Assembly (NCBI RefSeq): GCF_003334355.1
Contig: NZ_QOWP01000009.1
Reading direction: 5' to 3' (one strand)
Length of the DNA stretch: 64,000 bases
Source: Escherichia coli
Lineage (GTDB): Bacteria > Pseudomonadota > Gammaproteobacteria > Enterobacterales > Enterobacteriaceae
This document shows, piece after piece, positions 20,799 through 61,590 of this stretch (position 1 is the first letter of the stretch; every line of letters starts with the position of its first letter). The notes under the pieces are model-generated. The model was not told where the DNA came from. It was given only the letters and a program-made list of their open reading frames with translations, and ran no database searches. The translations under genes and the position numbers were made by a program.

Positions 20799-20857
20799 TT
20801 GTTAATCGGCAACTTTGGGTTGCCGCCAAATTGCTAATATCGAGTACGTTGCTTCAT

Positions 20858-20957
<100 letters not shown>

Positions 20958-20997
20958 ATTTCTCGTTGGTCATCACTTTTGAAATCAAACTTGACGA

Positions 20998-21804: not shown

Positions 21805-22914
21805 ATGAAACGGAATGCAAAAACTATCATCGCAGGGATGATTGCACTGGCAATTTCACACACCGCTATGGCTGACGATATTAAAGTCGCCGTTGTCGGC
21901 GCGATGTCCGGCCCGATTGCCCAGTGGGGCGATATGGAATTTAACGGCGCGCGTCAGGCGATTAAAGACATTAATGCCAAAGGGGGGATTAAAGGCGATA
22001 AGCTGGTTGGCGTGGAATATGACGACGCCTGCGACCCGAAACAAGCCGTTGCGGTCGCCAACAAAATCGTTAATGACGGCATTAAATACGTTATTGGTCA
22101 TCTGTGTTCTTCTTCTACCCAACCTGCATCAGATATCTACGAAGACGAAGGTATTCTGATGATCTCGCCGGGAGCGACCAACCCGGAGCTGACCCAACGC
22201 GGTTATCAACACATTATGCGTACTGCCGGGCTGGACTCTTCCCAGGGGCCAACGGCGGCAAAATACATTCTTGAGACGGTGAAGCCCCAGCGCATCGCCA
22301 TCATTCACGACAAACAACAGTATGGCGAAGGGCTGGCGCGTTCGGTGCAGGACGGGCTGAAAGCGGCTAACGCCAACGTCGTCTTCTTCGACGGTATTAC
22401 CGCCGGGGAGAAAGATTTCTCCGCGCTGATCGCCCGCCTGAAAAAAGAAAACATCGACTTCGTTTACTACGGCGGTTACTACCCGGAAATGGGGCAGATG
22501 CTGCGCCAGGCCCGTTCCGTTGGCCTGAAAACTCAGTTTATGGGGCCGGAAGGTGTGGGTAACGCATCATTGTCGAATATTGCCGGTGATGCTGCCGAAG
22601 GCATGTTGGTCACTATGCCAAAACGCTATGACCAGGATCCGGCAAACCAGGGCATCGTTGATGCGCTGAAAGCAGACAAGAAAGATCCGTCCGGGCCTTA
22701 TGTCTGGATCACCTACGCGGCGGTGCAATCTCTGGCGACTGCCCTTGAGCGTACTGGCAGCGATGAGCCGCTGGCGCTGGTGAAAGATTTAAAAGCTAAC
22801 GGTGCAAACACCGTGATTGGGCCGCTGAACTGGGATGAAAAAGGCGATCTTAAGGGATTTGATTTTGGTGTCTTCCAGTGGCACGCCGACGGTTCATCCA
22901 CGGCAGCCAAGTGA
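21805..22914 (+). CDS. livK: Leucine-specific binding protein LivK
   Basis: ORF track 21751..22914; start at ATG 21805 ([23 protein letters not shown] signal peptide) gives 369 aa; highly similar to LivJ. Confidence 0.93.
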
Positions 22915-26641: not shown

Positions 26642-26702
26642 TAACACGTTGATTGATAAGGAGTCAAAAGACTCCTTTGAGACAGGTGACAAATGTAAAA
26701 TT

Positions 26703-26802
26703 GCCTGATGCGCTGCGCTTATCAGGCCTACTGGGTGAGTTGCAATATATTGAATTTGCACGATCTTGTAGGCCGGATAAGGCGTTTACGCCGCATCTGG
26801 CA
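26703..26802. repeat. REP/BIME: two inverted REP units after livF
   Basis: GCCTGATGCGCTGCGCTTATCAGGCCTAC (26703..26731) and TGTAGGCCGGATAAGGCGTTTACGCCGCATCTGGCA (26767..26802). Confidence 0.85.
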
Positions 26803-26901
26803 TGAAACGATGAGTAATCTGTAGAGTTTGATTCAGACCTTCTATTTTTCCGCTTATCCGTGCCCCATCTCCCATTTTCCCTCACCCACGCCGTCACCGC
26901 C

Positions 26902-35053: not shown

Positions 35054-35548
35054 TTATGAACAACTGTCCATGATTTCGTTTAAGAATGAAGAGAAATCAC
35101 TAAACGAACTGAATATATTTTCTGTGCCGATATTATCTCTAATTTCAAAAAAGTTACTTTTAATGTCATAAGTAAATATTGAAATGCTATCATCCCCGAT
35201 CACTAACCGTTCTTGTAGATCAGGGTTTATGAAATCATCATTATTTCTATAAAATTCATTTACGGCAAAAAGGTTTTTAACTGAAGGTTCTGGAATCGAG
35301 AGGCTAAATAATCGTAATCCATTAACTTCGAATCCATCCATTGCTCTTAAAAAAGTAAGATAATCAGGTTGATTCTTAAAAAGAATACTAACTTCATTAC
35401 ATAACTTCTCCAGGCAATTAGTTGAATTAGAATTAAATTCTATTTGGATTATACTTTCAATAAATGATTCCTTGAGCGGTGCTTCAAATGGATAGTCTAA
35501 ATCATTCATCATTTTTATTAATTTATTTATTTGGGTTTTAGTCATCAT
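35054..35548 (-). CDS. yrhA: Putative immunity protein for the YhhZ nuclease toxin (intact YrhA-like, 164 aa)
   Basis: 164 aa acidic ORF immediately downstream of yhhZ with ATGA start/stop overlap (35545..35548); AT-rich; position matches yrhA. Immunity role is inferred from the gene arrangement. Confidence 0.7.
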   Translation of the reverse strand: MMTKTQINKLIKMMNDLDYPFEAPLKESFIESIIQIEFNSNSTNCLEKLCNEVSILFKNQPDYLTFLRAMDGFEVNGLRLFSLSIPEPSVKNLFAVNEFYRNNDDFINPDLQERLVIGDDSISIFTYDIKSNFFEIRDNIGTENIFSSFSDFSSFLNEIMDSCS

Positions 35549-36723
35549 TTTGTGTGGTCCATAATATTTTTCATGGGAGGATAAATTGAGCCAGATGGAA
35601 TGGCCCAGGGAGTGATTTTGCTTTCACCTACTAATATTCCCTTAGCTATTCGTGATTGTATGTTAGTAAAAACTTTATGATATGGTTCGTTTTCGATTAA
35701 TACTAAATTTTCGAAATCATTAGTACCACCATCATCTAGAGATAGTTTATGGTGAACATTATAATTTAGAGGAACATTGCCCTTTCTCATTCTTAAAAGG
35801 TCTTCGGCGTTGAATCTTCCAGATGCTTCGGAGGTTTTTGCAAGTTTGATAAGAAAATTTTTTCTTACAGTTTTATTAAACTCCTTTCGTAAGTTAGCTA
35901 AGTCTTTTGAAGGTCTCTTAATGTATATTATTTCTATTATGTCTATACCATCAAGAAGTTTTTGTTGACCTCTAAGTTTGCCTAAGTAACTATTTATTTC
36001 TGTATATGTATCAACATTATAACGCTTTGTTAAAAGAATAGATGCTGTTGCTATCGCTATGCCCGCTGTTTTTTCATTTAGTATTTGATCATAGCCTTTT
36101 ATTGCATCTCCACCCAGTTTTTCCGCAGTATCTCTGAATCCTTCAATGTTCCCATTGTATACGCCACCAGCAGCAAGTAGCCTGCCAATAGCTTTGCTGT
36201 TTAACGTTTTGAAACGATTATTTGTTTGGTTTTTTGAATTTGGTAAAAACAAACGGTTATAATTTTCAGGGAGTGCCAAATAGCTGAACTCGGTATTTGC
36301 GATAAGATGTTGACAGAGGATAAATTCATAACTAATAGTTATTTTTTCTGTATCCAGTTGGTTTTCAATGATCTGGTGATGAATAGCCGATAAAAAAGCG
36401 CCTCTTAGTTGTATATAATAATACTTTTCCCATCTACCAAATCTATTTATTCGATAGAAGTCAAATCCCATAAATAATTGTTCATTATTGTTAATGGAAT
36501 TAATAAATAATGGAGTGCTTTTATCAATTAATTTACAAAATGTTATACCATGGAACTGTGAACCAAGCCCCGTATTATTAATATTATTTAAGAGTGAGAA
36601 TGTAAATGTTTCATCCTCATGCCCGCTCTGCCAACGATTACCTGTAGACTCAGAAGTCCCACAACCTGCGGAGATGCTTCCTTGTTGTTCTCCCGTTACT
36701 GTCAGGTAAACAATATTACTCAT
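35545..36723 (-). CDS. yhhZ: Hcp-domain protein fused to C-terminal HNH nuclease (Hcp-ET-like orphan T6SS effector)
   Basis: 392 aa ORF; N-terminal ~160 aa shows the Hcp pattern (MSNIVYLTVTGEQQGS...KLIDKSTPLF), C-terminus carries an HNH/beta-beta-alpha-Me motif (NYNVHHKLSLDDGGTNDFENLVLIENEPYH); markedly AT-rich versus flanking genes. Confidence 0.85.
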   Translation of the reverse strand: MSNIVYLTVTGEQQGSISAGCGTSESTGNRWQSGHEDETFTFSLLNNINNTGLGSQFHGITFCKLIDKSTPLFINSINNNEQLFMGFDFYRINRFGRWEKYYYIQLRGAFLSAIHHQIIENQLDTEKITISYEFILCQHLIANTEFSYLALPENYNRLFLPNSKNQTNNRFKTLNSKAIGRLLAAGGVYNGNIEGFRDTAEKLGGDAIKGYDQILNEKTAGIAIATASILLTKRYNVDTYTEINSYLGKLRGQQKLLDGIDIIEIIYIKRPSKDLANLRKEFNKTVRKNFLIKLAKTSEASGRFNAEDLLRMRKGNVPLNYNVHHKLSLDDGGTNDFENLVLIENEPYHKVFTNIQSRIAKGILVGESKITPWAIPSGSIYPPMKNIMDHTK

Positions 36724-36959: not shown

Positions 36960-37448
36960 TTACTTCACCCGCGCCATATAATACGCATCGACATATTCAC
37001 CATTACGCAATGCGTACTTCTTACCAGTCCCTTCAATTTCAAAGCCGTATTTTTTATAGACCTTAATTGCCGGGGCGTTATCGACAAACACGGTTAGTTC
37101 AATGCGATCTACCCGCAACCAGTTGTCGCACATTTCAATCATCTCTCGCATAAGGGCGCTGGCGACGCCGCGATTCTTCCAATGGGAGTCGACACAGATA
37201 CCAAAATCGGCAACATGACTGCGGCGTGGGCGCTGTTGCACGTCAATGGTGAGATGGCCCACGACGTCTCCATCAATACAGGCGACGAGTTGCTTGATGC
37301 CGGGACGATCGGCGAGTCGCTCCTGCCACATATAATCGGAAGGATGAGGCACTTGTAGCGTGTTGTAATACACCTCCGGCTGGGCGTGAATCTGCCTGAT
37401 GGCCTCGTAATCGCGCGTTTCAGCATGGCGTATCACTATCTCACTCAT
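36960..37448 (-). CDS. yhhY: GNAT-family N-acetyltransferase YhhY
   Basis: ORF track 36960..37526; start at internal Met (MSEIVIRHAETRDY..., codon complement 37446..37448) gives 162 aa; GNAT motifs. Confidence 0.85.
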   Translation of the reverse strand: MSEIVIRHAETRDYEAIRQIHAQPEVYYNTLQVPHPSDYMWQERLADRPGIKQLVACIDGDVVGHLTIDVQQRPRRSHVADFGICVDSHWKNRGVASALMREMIEMCDNWLRVDRIELTVFVDNAPAIKVYKKYGFEIEGTGKKYALRNGEYVDAYYMARVK

Positions 37449-37544
37449 TCCTTTGTCCTCTTTGGGGTAAATGTCCCTTTCAACATCATTGACTTTCGAA
37501 TGCGAGTCAAATGCATTTTTTTGCAAAAAGTGTTGGACAAGTGC

Positions 37545-37565
37545 GAATGAGAATGATTATTATTG
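37545..37565 (+). promoter_or_regulatory. Fur box in the ryhB promoter
   Basis: GAATGAGAATGATTATTATTG matches the Fur consensus GATAATGATAATCATTATC at about 13 of 16 aligned positions; ends just upstream of the ryhB 5' end. Confidence 0.65.
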
Positions 37566-37569
37566 TCTC

Positions 37570-37660
37570 GCGATCAGGAAGACCCTCGCGGAGAACCTGA
37601 AAGCACGACATTGCTCACATTGCTTCCAGTATTACTTAGCCAGCCGGGTGCTGGCTTTTT
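37570..37660 (+). ncRNA. ryhB: Iron-responsive small RNA RyhB
   Basis: GCGATCAGGAAGACCCTCGCGGAGAACCTGAAAGCACGACATTGCTCACATTGCTTCCAGTATTACTTAGCCAGCCGGGTGCTGGCTTTTTTTTT matches the RyhB sequence as I recall it; ends in hairpin GCCAGC-CGGGT-GCTGGC plus a T9 tract; lies between yhhY and yhhX. Confidence 0.9.
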
Positions 37661-37780
37661 TTTTGATCTTTCGTTCTCAATTTATCCACGGGAGTGCTTG
37701 TGTTCGTTATGCGCACTCCAGTAGGAACCACGTCCGCTTTGCGCTAAGGTGTAAATAACCACCTTAAAAAGGACGAAATC

Positions 37781-38818
37781 ATGGTCATCAACTGCGCCTT
37801 TATTGGCTTCGGCAAAAGCACCACCCGTTACCATCTGCCGTATGTACTTAACCGCAAGGATAGCTGGCATGTCGCGCATATTTTTCGTCGCCATGCGAAG
37901 CCGGAAGAACAGGCTCCCATTTATTCCCATATCCATTTCACCAGCGATCTCGACGAAGTACTAAACGATCCCGATGTTAAGCTGGTTGTTGTCTGCACCC
38001 ACGCGGACAGCCATTTCGAGTACGCGAAACGCGCGCTGGAAGCCGGGAAAAATGTGCTGGTCGAAAAACCGTTCACCCCGACGCTTGCCCAGGCGAAGGA
38101 GCTGTTTGCGTTGGCGAAAAGCAAAGGGCTGACCGTCACGCCGTATCAGAATCGTCGCTTTGACTCCTGCTTCCTGACAGCGAAAAAAGCGATTGAAAGT
38201 GGCAAGTTGGGAGAGATTGTTGAAGTGGAAAGCCATTTTGACTATTACCGCCCGGTCGCAGAAACCAAACCTGGGTTGCCGCAGGATGGCGCGTTCTATG
38301 GCCTTGGTGTGCATACGATGGACCAGATTATTTCTCTGTTCGGTCGCCCGGATCACGTCGCTTATGACATCCGCAGCCTGCGCAATAAAGCCAATCCTGA
38401 CGATACTTTCGAAGCGCAACTGTTTTATGGCGATCTAAAAGCCATCGTCAAAACCAGCCATCTGGTGAAAATCGATTATCCGAAATTTATCGTTCACGGT
38501 AAGAAAGGTTCGTTTATTAAATATGGTATCGACCAGCAGGAAACCAGCCTGAAGGCTAATATTATGCCGGGCGAACCGGGATTCTCAGCGGATGATTCGG
38601 TCGGTGTGCTGGAGTATGTCAATGACGAGGGCGTGACGGTCAGAGAAGAGATTAAGCCGGAGATGGGCGATTACGGGCGCGTTTATGATGCGTTGTATCA
38701 AACCATCACCCACGGTGCGCCAAATTACGTCAAGGAATCTGAAGTTCTTACGAATCTGGAAATCCTTGAACGCGGATTCGAGCAAGCCTCTCCCTCCACA
38801 GTGACTCTCGCGAAGTAA
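37781..38818 (+). CDS. yhhX: Gfo/Idh/MocA-family NAD(P)-dependent oxidoreductase YhhX
   Basis: 345 aa ORF with N-terminal Rossmann-like segment (INCAFIGFGKSTTRYH). Confidence 0.88.
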   Translation: MVINCAFIGFGKSTTRYHLPYVLNRKDSWHVAHIFRRHAKPEEQAPIYSHIHFTSDLDEVLNDPDVKLVVVCTHADSHFEYAKRALEAGKNVLVEKPFTPTLAQAKELFALAKSKGLTVTPYQNRRFDSCFLTAKKAIESGKLGEIVEVESHFDYYRPVAETKPGLPQDGAFYGLGVHTMDQIISLFGRPDHVAYDIRSLRNKANPDDTFEAQLFYGDLKAIVKTSHLVKIDYPKFIVHGKKGSFIKYGIDQQETSLKANIMPGEPGFSADDSVGVLEYVNDEGVTVREEIKPEMGDYGRVYDALYQTITHGAPNYVKESEVLTNLEILERGFEQASPSTVTLAK

Positions 38819-54566: not shown

Positions 54567-56083
54567 ATGGAAAGAATAATGCAAAACAGAAAATGGATTT
54601 TGACCTCGCTGGTAATGACTTTTTTCGGCATCCCCATTCTGGCGCAGTTTTTGGCGGCGGTTATTGCCATGCTGGGTGTCGGACTTGCCGGTATTATTGA
54701 AGTTTGTAATATCTTTATCACGCCAACAATTTACCTTCTGCTCAACGTCTTTATGCTGACGCTGGGGGCGATAATAATATTTTTCTCTGGTCGCGTGTGG
54801 GCCGGTGATAGCGCGCCAGAAAACAGAGAAATAGCCGTCTGGCGGCAATGCTTTTTTCTCTTACCCGCGCTATTAACCCTGGTTGGCTGGATAATCACGC
54901 TACATCTGGCAGATTATCAATTTCGCCAGATGGGAGCTGGTTGGTTGGCAAACCTTATGCTTCCCTGGTTGGCGTTTTTTTAGTCTCATTAGTGGGTGGT
55001 GAGTACTGGTGGATGGTCATTATTCCCGTTGGGGCGCATATCAGTTTTTCGCTGGGATACGCCTGGCCGACCAGATATCCTTTATCCGGCACGTCCGGAC
55101 TACGTTGCCGTAACTTACTCCTGTTTCTACTTCTCTTACTTGGTATTGTCGCCGGGTATCAGGCCCATTTATATAAGCAGCAAAATCCTGGTGTCGGTGT
55201 ACGCGAAAATATTGATATCTGGGCCTGGCGACCCGATAAACTCAATAATCGACTGACGCCGCTGCGTGGCAAACCGCAAATTCAGTTTAGGCAAAACTGG
55301 CCGCGAATCGATGGCGCCACGGCTGCGTACCCAATTTATGCTTCTGCATTTTATGCATTAAGTGTAATACCAGAGGATTTTCACGTTTGGGATTATCTGG
55401 AAAACTCTCGTACGCCAGAAGCATATAACAAAATCGTTAAGGGCGATGCTGATATTATTTTCGTGGCGCAACCTTCCGGTGGGCAAAAAAAACGTGCAAA
55501 GGAATCTGGTGTCACTTTGCTGTACACCCCCTTTGCCCGTGAAGCATTCGTTTTCATCGTCAATGCGGATAATCCGGTTAATTCCCTGACTGAACAACAG
55601 GTGCGTGACATTTTCAGTGGTGCAATTACCAATTGGCGTGCTGTTGGCGGTAACGATCAGGAGATCCAGACCTGGCAGCGCCCGGAAGACTCTGGCAGCC
55701 AGACAGTGATGCAATCACAGGTCATGAAAAATGTCCGCATGATCTCGCCGCAGGAAACGAAAGTGGCAAGCGTGATGGAGGGAATGATTAAAGTCGTTGC
55801 CGAATACCGTAATACAAACAACGCAATAGGCTATACCTTCCGCTATTACGCGACGCAAATGAATGCTGATAAAAATATAAAATTGCTAGCGATTAACGGT
55901 ATTACACCGACGGCGGAAAACATTCGCAACGGCAAATATGCGTACATCGTCGATGCATTTATGGTGACGAGAGAAAATACAACGTCAGAAACACAAAAAC
56001 TGGTCGAATGGTTTTTAACGCCGCAGGGGCAGAGTCTGGTAGAAGATGTGGGATATGTGCCGCTGTATCCAACAATGGAATAA
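54567..56083 (+). pseudogene. Membrane-anchored PstS-like periplasmic-binding-domain protein, apparently disrupted by a +1 frameshift at a T7 tract (yzgL-like locus)
   Basis: Frame A ORF 54567..54983 (multi-TM) ends at TAG inside a T7 run (54975..54981); frame B ORF 54848..56083 continues with TM-like segments and a C-terminal PBP/PstS-like domain (DSGSQT..AIGYTFRYY..YVPLY). One extra T would fuse them into a single ~505-aa ORF. TATAAT at 54544..54549. Confidence 0.5.
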
Positions 56084-56108
56084 CGCTCGAGAGAAAGGAA
56101 TCAGCGAG

Positions 56109-57101
56109 ATGAATAAATTCACCGGTGTTTTACTATTAGGCACGGCGTTACTGGCGGGATGTGTCGACCGGGAAGGGTACTATAACAGCGTTAGGGAAGA
56201 AGAGAGCCATGGACTGACGTCTCTGCGGGGGCAACCTGCATTACGTTACAGCGATGATTGGTCAAGATGGCCGAGAGTGTACGGCGCTACAGCCTTATAC
56301 CCGCTGTATGCCTCCGCGTATTATAAATTAGTACCCGAGCCAAAAGATAAGGATCGAACCTCGCTGGCCTGGCAGGCGTATGGTTTGCAGCAAACCCGAA
56401 CAGCTGAAGCCTACGATAGTCTGATTAAAGGTTCCGCGACGGTTATTTTTGTTGCACAACCGTCGGAAGGACAGAAAAAACGTGCAGAAGAAGCGGGTGT
56501 TAAACTGAAATATACCGCTTTCGCCCGCGAAGCCTTTGTCTTTATCGTTGATATTAATAACCCGGTAAATTCTCTCTCTGAGCACCAGGTTAAAGATATT
56601 TTTAGCGGCAAAACTAGCCGCTGGAATAAAGTAGGTGGTAGTGACGAACATATAAAAGTCTGGCAGCGCCCTGAAGATTCTGGAAGCCAAACGATTATGA
56701 AGGGGTTGGTTATGCAAGACACCCCAATGCTGCCAGCTAAAAAATCCACTGTGATTGATCTTATGGGCGGTTTAATTACTGAAGTTGCCGACTATCAAAA
56801 CACGCCATCTTCCATTGGGTACACCTTCCACTATTACGTCACTCGTATGAATGACAATATGCTCAAAATGCGCAAGCAGATTAAACTTTTGGCTATAAAT
56901 GGCGTTGCGCCTACCGAGGAAAATATCCGCAACGGCACTTATCCATACATTGTGGATGCCTATATGGTGACGCGTGAAAATCCCACGCCGGAAACGCAGA
57001 AATTTGTTGACTGGTTTATAAGTCAGCAGGGGCAACAGTTGGTAGAGGATGTGGGGTATGTGCCGCTGTATGAAGCATCCCCCGAATCATCAGGACAATA
57101 A
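56109..57101 (+). CDS. Lipoprotein with PstS-like periplasmic substrate-binding domain (paralog of the upstream gene's C-terminal domain)
   Basis: ORF track 56046..57101; start at ATG 56109 (MNKFTGVLLLGTALLAGC lipobox) after AAAGGA; the domain aligns by eye with 54848..56083 (AREAFVFIV, NPVNSL, WQRPEDSGSQT, IGYTF.YY, LLAINGV.PT.ENIRNG, VEDVGYVPLY). Confidence 0.7.
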   Translation: MNKFTGVLLLGTALLAGCVDREGYYNSVREEESHGLTSLRGQPALRYSDDWSRWPRVYGATALYPLYASAYYKLVPEPKDKDRTSLAWQAYGLQQTRTAEAYDSLIKGSATVIFVAQPSEGQKKRAEEAGVKLKYTAFAREAFVFIVDINNPVNSLSEHQVKDIFSGKTSRWNKVGGSDEHIKVWQRPEDSGSQTIMKGLVMQDTPMLPAKKSTVIDLMGGLITEVADYQNTPSSIGYTFHYYVTRMNDNMLKMRKQIKLLAINGVAPTEENIRNGTYPYIVDAYMVTRENPTPETQKFVDWFISQQGQQLVEDVGYVPLYEASPESSGQ

Positions 57102-57703
57102 TGATGAATATAATCAGACTTTATATTTATCCGTTATTTCTCGGCTTTGTTATTGTGCCGTTGTTGGTGTGGCCGATGGTGGTTGCGCTGGCTGCTTGTA
57201 TTATCACGCTGAGTTTTCTGGGGGAAATGCTGTTCTCAATCCCGCTCATGATCAGGCGTATTTCACTTCTGCAATTACAACTTTGGTTATCGGCTGAATA
57301 TGCGCTTTTCTTCTGTGTAATGTGTTGCGTTGGTTGGCAATTTACTCGTAGAACTCAATCTGAATTGAAAAGCAGGCTCCATTGTTGATTGGTATTCGCA
57401 CCGATCTATTTATGGTTGATCCTCTGGAATATCATTTTTTACATCGCGCCAGCGAAAATTGCGTTGCTGGAAAGTATCCGCAATTTCTTTCTGCTTGTTG
57501 TCTGGCTACCCCTGAATTTTTCGCCATTTTGGCCTCAGCCGTGGACGGATTTTATCGGTCCAATAAGCGCACAGCTTGGTTTTGCGTTGGGATATTATTG
57601 CCAGTGGTGCAGCAAAAATAGATGCCAGATACGGAAGTTGAGTGAGTGGGGAACGTGCTTAAGTTTTGTTACGTTGGGTATGATGGCGTGGGCTTTGCGG
57701 TAA
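57101..57703 (+). pseudogene. Small polytopic membrane protein ORF interrupted by an in-frame TGA (two ORF-track pieces 57101..57388 and 57389..57703)
   Basis: ATG 57101 overlaps the stop of the upstream lipoprotein gene (TAATG); ORF reads through to TGA at 57386..57388 and continues in the same frame from 57389 to 57703. The distal part (GPISAQLGFALGYYCQW) resembles the membrane segment of 54567..56083 (PVGAHISFSLGYAWPTR). Confidence 0.35.
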
Positions 57704-60831: not shown

Positions 60832-61590
60832 ATGAAACAAACACAACGTCACAACGGTATTATCGAACTGGTTAAACAGCAGGGTTATGTCAGTACCGAA
60901 GAGCTGGTAGAGCATTTCTCCGTCAGCCCGCAGACTATTCGCCGCGACCTCAATGAGCTGGCGGAGCAAAACCTGATCCTGCGCCATCATGGCGGTGCGG
61001 CGCTGCCTTCCAGTTCGGTTAACACGCCGTGGCACGATCGCAAGGCCACCCAGACCGAAGAAAAAGAGCGCATCGCCCGCAAAGTGGCGGAGCAAATCCC
61101 CAATGGCTCGACGCTGTTTATCGATATCGGCACCACGCCGGAAGCGGTAGCGCACGCACTGCTCAATCACAGCAATTTGCGCATTGTCACCAACAATCTC
61201 AACGTTGCTAACACGTTGATGGTAAAAGAAGATTTTCGCATCATTCTCGCCGGTGGCGAATTACGCAGCCGCGATGGCGGGATCATTGGCGAAGCGACGC
61301 TCGATTTTATCTCCCAGTTCCGCCTTGATTTCGGCATTCTGGGGATAAGCGGCATCGATAGCGACGGCTCGCTGCTGGAGTTCGATTACCACGAAGTTCG
61401 CACCAAACGCGCCATTATTGAGAACTCGCGCCACGTTATGCTGGTTGTCGATCACTCGAAATTTGGCCGTAACGCGATGGTCAATATGGGCAGCATCAGC
61501 ATGGTAGATGCCGTCTACACCGACGCCCAGCCGCCAGTAAGCGTGATGCAGGTGCTGACGGACCACCATATTCAACTGGAGCTGTGCTGA
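60832..61590 (+). CDS. glpR: Glycerol-3-phosphate regulon repressor GlpR (DeoR family)
   Basis: 252 aa ORF with N-terminal DeoR HTH (ELVEHFSVSPQTIRRDLNEL). Confidence 0.93.
   Translation: MKQTQRHNGIIELVKQQGYVSTEELVEHFSVSPQTIRRDLNELAEQNLILRHHGGAALPSSSVNTPWHDRKATQTEEKERIARKVAEQIPNGSTLFIDIGTTPEAVAHALLNHSNLRIVTNNLNVANTLMVKEDFRIILAGGELRSRDGGIIGEATLDFISQFRLDFGILGISGIDSDGSLLEFDYHEVRTKRAIIENSRHVMLVVDHSKFGRNAMVNMGSISMVDAVYTDAQPPVSVMQVLTDHHIQLELC

Follow-up and report, generated by a model that had tools for sequence, protein, structure and literature searches.

The window analysed here, a stretch of 64,000 nt of Escherichia coli DNA, contains an intergenic region between yhhY and yhhX in which the following features were located; the K-12 reference copy is listed last:

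36960-37448, minus strand: yhhY (NCBIfam NF007527, 368 bits against a cut-off of 236)
37534-37539, plus strand: -35 hexamer TGGACA of ryhB, from the promoter scan
37549-37567, no strand assigned: Fur box, putative Fur-Fe2+ operator, 16/19 match to the consensus
37558-37563, plus strand: -10 hexamer TATTAT of ryhB, from the promoter scan, 6 nt ahead of the 5' end annotated in K-12 (37570)
37570-37664, plus strand: ryhB transcript, 95 nt according to the K-12 annotation, which includes the full T9; mature RNA ~90 nt
37570-37589, plus strand: predicted 5' stem-loop SL1, from the minimum free energy (MFE) fold, with pairs within nt 1-20; outside the Rfam model
37605-37630, plus strand: central hairpin with the conserved pairing core, from the Rfam consensus, 6/6 pairs standard
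37638-37664, plus strand: Rho-independent terminator and Hfq-binding module, 7-bp stem and 5-nt loop (37638-37656) with a U9 tail (37656-37664)
37781-38818, plus strand: yhhX (NCBIfam NF007574, 778 bits against a cut-off of 352)
NC_000913.3 3580922-3581016, minus strand: K-12 reference ryhB (b4451), 95 nt, annotated, between yhhX and yhhY

Alignment of the transcribed segment to b4451 of K-12 MG1655 revealed identity at 95 of 95 positions. Across the yhhY-yhhX intergenic region (window 37449-37780) there were 331 identities in 332 positions; the sole difference from K-12 (window 37498, g here vs. a in K-12) falls 72 nt before the ryhB 5' end annotated in K-12, within the upstream region of the divergent yhhY gene, such that the RNA, promoter, Fur operator and terminator are all identical to K-12 and the gene itself carries no difference. 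Flanks, orientation and the gene order yhhY-ryhB-yhhX are also the same, and the whole window is collinear with K-12 3619349-3557438, in reverse orientation, at 98.4-99.2% identity. A scan of the entire 64-kb window with Rfam 15 at gathering thresholds returned a single match, to RyhB (RF00057), at 37599-37663 on the plus strand (83.1 bits, E = 3.6e-14; gathering score 55), in an alignment that spans the full model (1-67) without non-standard pairs. ARAGORN found no tRNA or tmRNA genes in the 64-kb window, and the annotation of the collinear K-12 region lists no ncRNA other than ryhB.

The original prediction, made from the raw sequence, had described a complete RyhB-like RNA of about 90 nt between yhhY and yhhX, with a Fur-box-like sequence immediately before its 5' end and a strong terminator (GCCAGC-CGGGT-GCTGGC plus T9) at its 3' end, and had considered it the only RNA gene that could be supported in the window. 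Each of these statements was borne out: the RNA lies at 37570-37664 with full identity to K-12, the flanking genes were confirmed by NF007527 and NF007574, the Fur box precedes the 5' end by 3 nt, the terminator is present with a stem that our scan extends to 7 bp, and the Rfam and ARAGORN scans as well as the K-12 annotation agree on a lone RNA gene. Its range (37540-37665) omits only the -35 hexamer. The two checks that it had proposed, an Rfam covariance search and an alignment to K-12 ryhB, gave the match above its gathering score and the complete identity reported above, with the seed-pairing region unchanged. Judging from the sequence, we conclude that 37570-37664 is almost certainly the chromosomal ryhB of E. 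coli, encoding a trans-acting, Hfq-dependent, iron-sparing small RNA (sRNA) of ~90 nt. By the same sequence comparison, this copy is an already known and well-studied gene and nothing new, and the prediction was correct in calling the element known, not novel.

Several other features of the window were recorded along the way. Secondary BLAST matches in the K-12 region (window 20849-20975, 21865-22734 and 26690-26806) are ordinary; they stem from the paralogy of livJ and livK (78% identity over 876 bp) and from short intergenic repeats (~120 bp, 82-86% identity) that are probably REP-type. Between glgP and glpD, a 2.84-kb segment (54802-57643) is absent from K-12 MG1655, which has yzgL there. 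Within it are two paralogous ORFs, 54848-56083 (411 aa) and 56046-57101 (351 aa); both match TIGR02136, a model of PstS-family phosphate-binding proteins, at ~120 bits, short of the cut-off of 206.6. Of the 5426 complete E. coli genomes, only 883 have this segment in full length and many others have it in partial or diverged form, which makes it a variable accessory islet. The glpR gene (60832-61590, plus strand) is an intact 252-aa ORF here vs. a pseudogene in the K-12 MG1655 annotation. Upstream of the ryhB locus in window coordinates, yhhZ (35545-36723, minus strand; 392 aa), annotated in K-12 as a putative endonuclease, comprises an Hcp/TssD type VI secretion tube domain (residues 1-147) and a long C-terminal extension, and overlaps by 4 nt with an intact yrhA (35054-35548, minus strand; 164 aa; YrhA family NF038335). 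IS1E splits yrhA in K-12 and IS1 truncates tssD/yhhZ in ATCC 8739; yhhZ-yrhA looks like an orphan Hcp-toxin/immunity pair that has been hit repeatedly by IS1.

The promoter scan identified a sigma-70-like promoter for ryhB (TGGACA and TATTAT, separated by 18 nt; 10 of 12 matches), the only promoter-like site in 37300-37900, and its placement fits a start at 37570. When both strands of the 64-kb window were searched for the 19-bp Fur-box consensus GATAATGATAATCATTATC, allowing at most 3 mismatches, 37549-37567 was the sole match, and 100 dinucleotide-preserving shuffles gave 0 hits. This Fur box overlaps the -10 hexamer, and its end lies 3 nt upstream of the 5' end annotated in K-12. At the K-12 ryhB site cluster, which is identical in sequence, Fur binding was confirmed by gel shift (25.2 bits, ~-15), and the same study puts ryhB between yhhX and yhhY (PMC2189734).

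The 5' start of the transcript reads GCGATCAGG, from G37570; on the plus strand the sequence from this nucleotide is GCGATCAGGAAGACCCTCGCGGAGAACCTGAAAGCACGACATTGCTCACATTGCTTCCAGTATTACTTAGCCAGCCGGGTGCTGGC, followed by nine T at 37656-37664. The MFE fold places a 5' hairpin at nt 1-20 and the terminator hairpin at nt 69-87, with a central structure between them. The central hairpin of the Rfam consensus holds two tandem copies of ACATTGCT (37608-37615 and 37617-37624; direct repeat, family D2). The fold of the whole RNA was as stable as that of shuffled sequences (z = -0.67; 48 of 200 shuffles gave an equal or better fold), and therefore neither supports nor undermines the ryhB structure. For sRNAs whose seed must stay accessible, the whole-molecule fold is usually no stabler than that of shuffled sequences. 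The terminator consists of GCCAGC (37639-37644), CGGGT (37645-37649), GCTGGC (37650-37655) and T9 (37656-37664), and the terminator scan returned an AGCCAGC/GCTGGCT stem of 7 bp with 5 G-C pairs at 37638-37656, followed by the T-run. This agrees with the U9 tail given for the ryhB terminator by a study that also reported a hairpin dG of -10.7 and a requirement of Hfq binding for polyU at the 3' terminus (PMC4509938).

We then considered target pairing. RyhB nt 38-46 (GACAUUGCU; window 37607-37615, GACATTGCT) form a perfect 9-nt Watson-Crick complement of K-12 sodB from -4 to +5, across the AUG, and the RyhB pairing core is identical to that of K-12. A complement of this length is only modestly unlikely, as 46 of 2000 mononucleotide shuffles reach 9 nt. 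This exact-complement test replaced an RNAduplex run of full-length RyhB against sodB -60 to +30, which produced an over-extended duplex (equalled by 43 of 500 shuffles) because intramolecular structure is ignored. In K-12, Fur-Fe2+ represses ryhB; upon iron starvation RyhB pairs with ~20 mRNAs that encode iron-using proteins, including sodB and sdhC, and blocks their translation, and together with Hfq it promotes decay of its targets by RNase E and the degradosome (PMC8544716). Induction by iron starvation or fur deletion, Hfq binding and RNase E-dependent target decay were all reported for the identical K-12 sequence (PMC8544716, PMC10710024). A possible link between the neighbouring GNAT gene yhhY and the Hfq-binding acetyltransferase HqbA was rejected, since HqbA is YhbS and the paper makes no mention of yhhY (PMC10710024).

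Repression by Fur, the need for Hfq and RNase E, and the range of targets would thus be carried over to the present copy from the literature on the identical K-12 sequence, and the locus may work as follows. When iron is plentiful, Fur-Fe2+ would occupy the operator at 37549-37567, over the -10 hexamer, and block transcription; when iron is scarce, Fur would leave the operator and transcription would start at G37570. Transcription would end at the hairpin and U9 terminator, and the same 3' hairpin and polyU would serve as the Hfq-binding module. The core (37605-37630) would pair with mRNAs that encode dispensable iron-using proteins, sodB and sdhCDAB among them, where their translation is initiated; in the case of sodB nt 38-46 would pair across the AUG. 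Pairing would block translation and, with Hfq, recruit RNase E and the degradosome, such that target and sRNA are degraded together.

RyhB-like sequences were also found outside this locus. One lies on a 10.9-kb circular plasmid of Enterobacter roggenkampii (NZ_CP045066.1, 2441-2503), beside yeaQ and next to IS903B; another lies in a Klebsiella record filed as a linear 221-kb 'plasmid' (NZ_CP076548.1, 4001-4061), beside fiu. We take these paralogues, beside fiu in Klebsiella and yeaQ in Enterobacter, to be of the RyhB-2/RfrB/IsrE type. In both, the core ACGACATTGCTCACATTGCTTCCAGTATT is invariant, the terminator hairpin and polyU tail are shared with the window ryhB, and a Fur-box-like sequence of their own (AATGAGAA..ATTATC) lies upstream, as it does here; within the RNA, conservation is confined to the core and the terminator. 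They differ from the window copy in the 5' third, in genomic location and in the sequence of the terminator stem, where the changes are compensatory (GCCAGC/GCTGGC in the window vs. CCCGC/GCGGG and CCCAC/GTGGG in the paralogues). The window copy is the yhhY-yhhX (RyhB-1) orthologue and not of the RyhB-2 type. Neither paralogue is annotated as an RNA gene, and the Klebsiella copy lies under a gene call for a 'hypothetical protein'.

Mobile copies of RyhB were sought in plasmid and phage collections, where the matches were mostly misfiled chromosomes or chromosomal contigs: records of 4-5 Mb, the linear 221-kb Klebsiella record and Salmonella whole-genome contigs, besides two short unannotated 'phage' records (2.0 and 2.4 kb). 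The Klebsiella record, which carries fiu and ybiX, looks chromosomal. Among these matches the 10.9-kb Enterobacter record alone looks like a genuine plasmid, and its copy appears to sit in a mobilised chromosomal fragment with chromosome-like yeaQ and yoaK. Membership in the PrrF family (RF00444) was rejected as a chance match (21.3 bits vs. a gathering score of 90; E = 0.53). PrrF1 and PrrF2 of Pseudomonas follow the same logic as RyhB, being repressed by Fur and repressing sodB and sdh, but the window ryhB shares neither sequence nor structure membership with them.

With yhhX on the same strand, 116 nt downstream (ryhB end 37664, yhhX ATG 37781), the Fur box and promoter could instead serve mainly yhhX, in which case the ryhB segment would be the 5' leader, or an attenuator, of a yhhX mRNA under Fur control and no independent RNA gene. 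The Fur site was indeed first attributed to yhhX, but the cluster was reassigned to ryhB in the same study (PMC2189734). Likewise, ~20% of polymerases read through the ryhB terminator in plasmid constructs, but the RNAs made by read-through fail to bind Hfq and are not the functional species (PMC4509938). The terminator is strong, with its 7-bp stem, 5 G-C pairs and U9, and core and terminator are retained without yhhX in the Rfam family and in the paralogues beside unrelated genes (fiu, yeaQ). We therefore regard this explanation as very improbable; a leader or attenuator role towards yhhX is conceivable, but secondary at best. The spacer between ryhB and yhhX does hold two further inverted repeats, both identical in K-12: one at 37688-37722 (ACGGGAGTGC/GCACTCCAGT, 10 nt, 90% complementary, 15-nt loop) and one at 37745-37766 (TAAGGTG/CACCTTA, 7 nt, 8-nt loop). 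These may be leader or operator elements of yhhX. There is a slim chance that terminator read-through brings Fur- and iron-controlled transcription into yhhX, with the repeats acting as a second attenuator or processing site; if so, the uncharacterised oxidoreductase YhhX would be a cis-linked member of the iron-starvation response.

The reading of the locus as the gene of a terminated sRNA also accords with its distribution. Of 5426 complete E. coli genomes, 5425 contain the 135-bp segment comprising promoter and gene, in every case on the chromosome and in 5414 with at least 99% identity; the 351-bp region around ryhB was likewise present in 5425 of the 5426, again always chromosomal. That the segment is a chance or decayed, unexpressed RyhB-like remnant has next to no probability given that it equals the functional gene of K-12 base for base, in promoter, operator and terminator too, and given the near-invariance in those 5414 genomes, and no points in its favour were found. 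A single record among the 5425 genomes with a match fell at 90-95% identity: in E. coli 23AR0151 (NZ_CP195448.1, ~601-744) a 9-nt duplication, ACATTGCTC, in the RyhB core gives three tandem copies of ACATTGCT, not two, probably through a slipped-strand event in the seed region.

The negligible prospect that the region encodes a small protein, instead of or besides an RNA regulator, is raised by the one ORF that overlaps ryhB (37563-37724; TTG start; 53 aa), but the 95-nt transcript has no ATG, no such product is annotated in K-12, and the ORF starts upstream of the 5' end given in K-12 and continues past the terminator, so that the terminated RNA cannot carry it.

RyhB has been among the best-characterised bacterial small RNAs since 2002. 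The present copy, identical to the reference gene, thus has little discovery value; it serves as a positive control, in that a non-coding gene, its operator and its terminator were recognisable to a first-stage reader from raw sequence. That reader had also stated that ORF-based annotation misses ryhB, and this holds in practice: among the records inspected, ryhB was annotated only in the curated K-12 record, and no feature lay over it in any of ~14 PGAP-annotated RefSeq E. coli records (12 sampled records, ATCC 8739 and strain 23AR0151; e.g., NZ_CP022959.1 311012-311362). RyhB is thus a near-universal sRNA of E. coli with a systematic gap in PGAP annotation, and annotation-based pipelines treat its locus as empty intergenic DNA.
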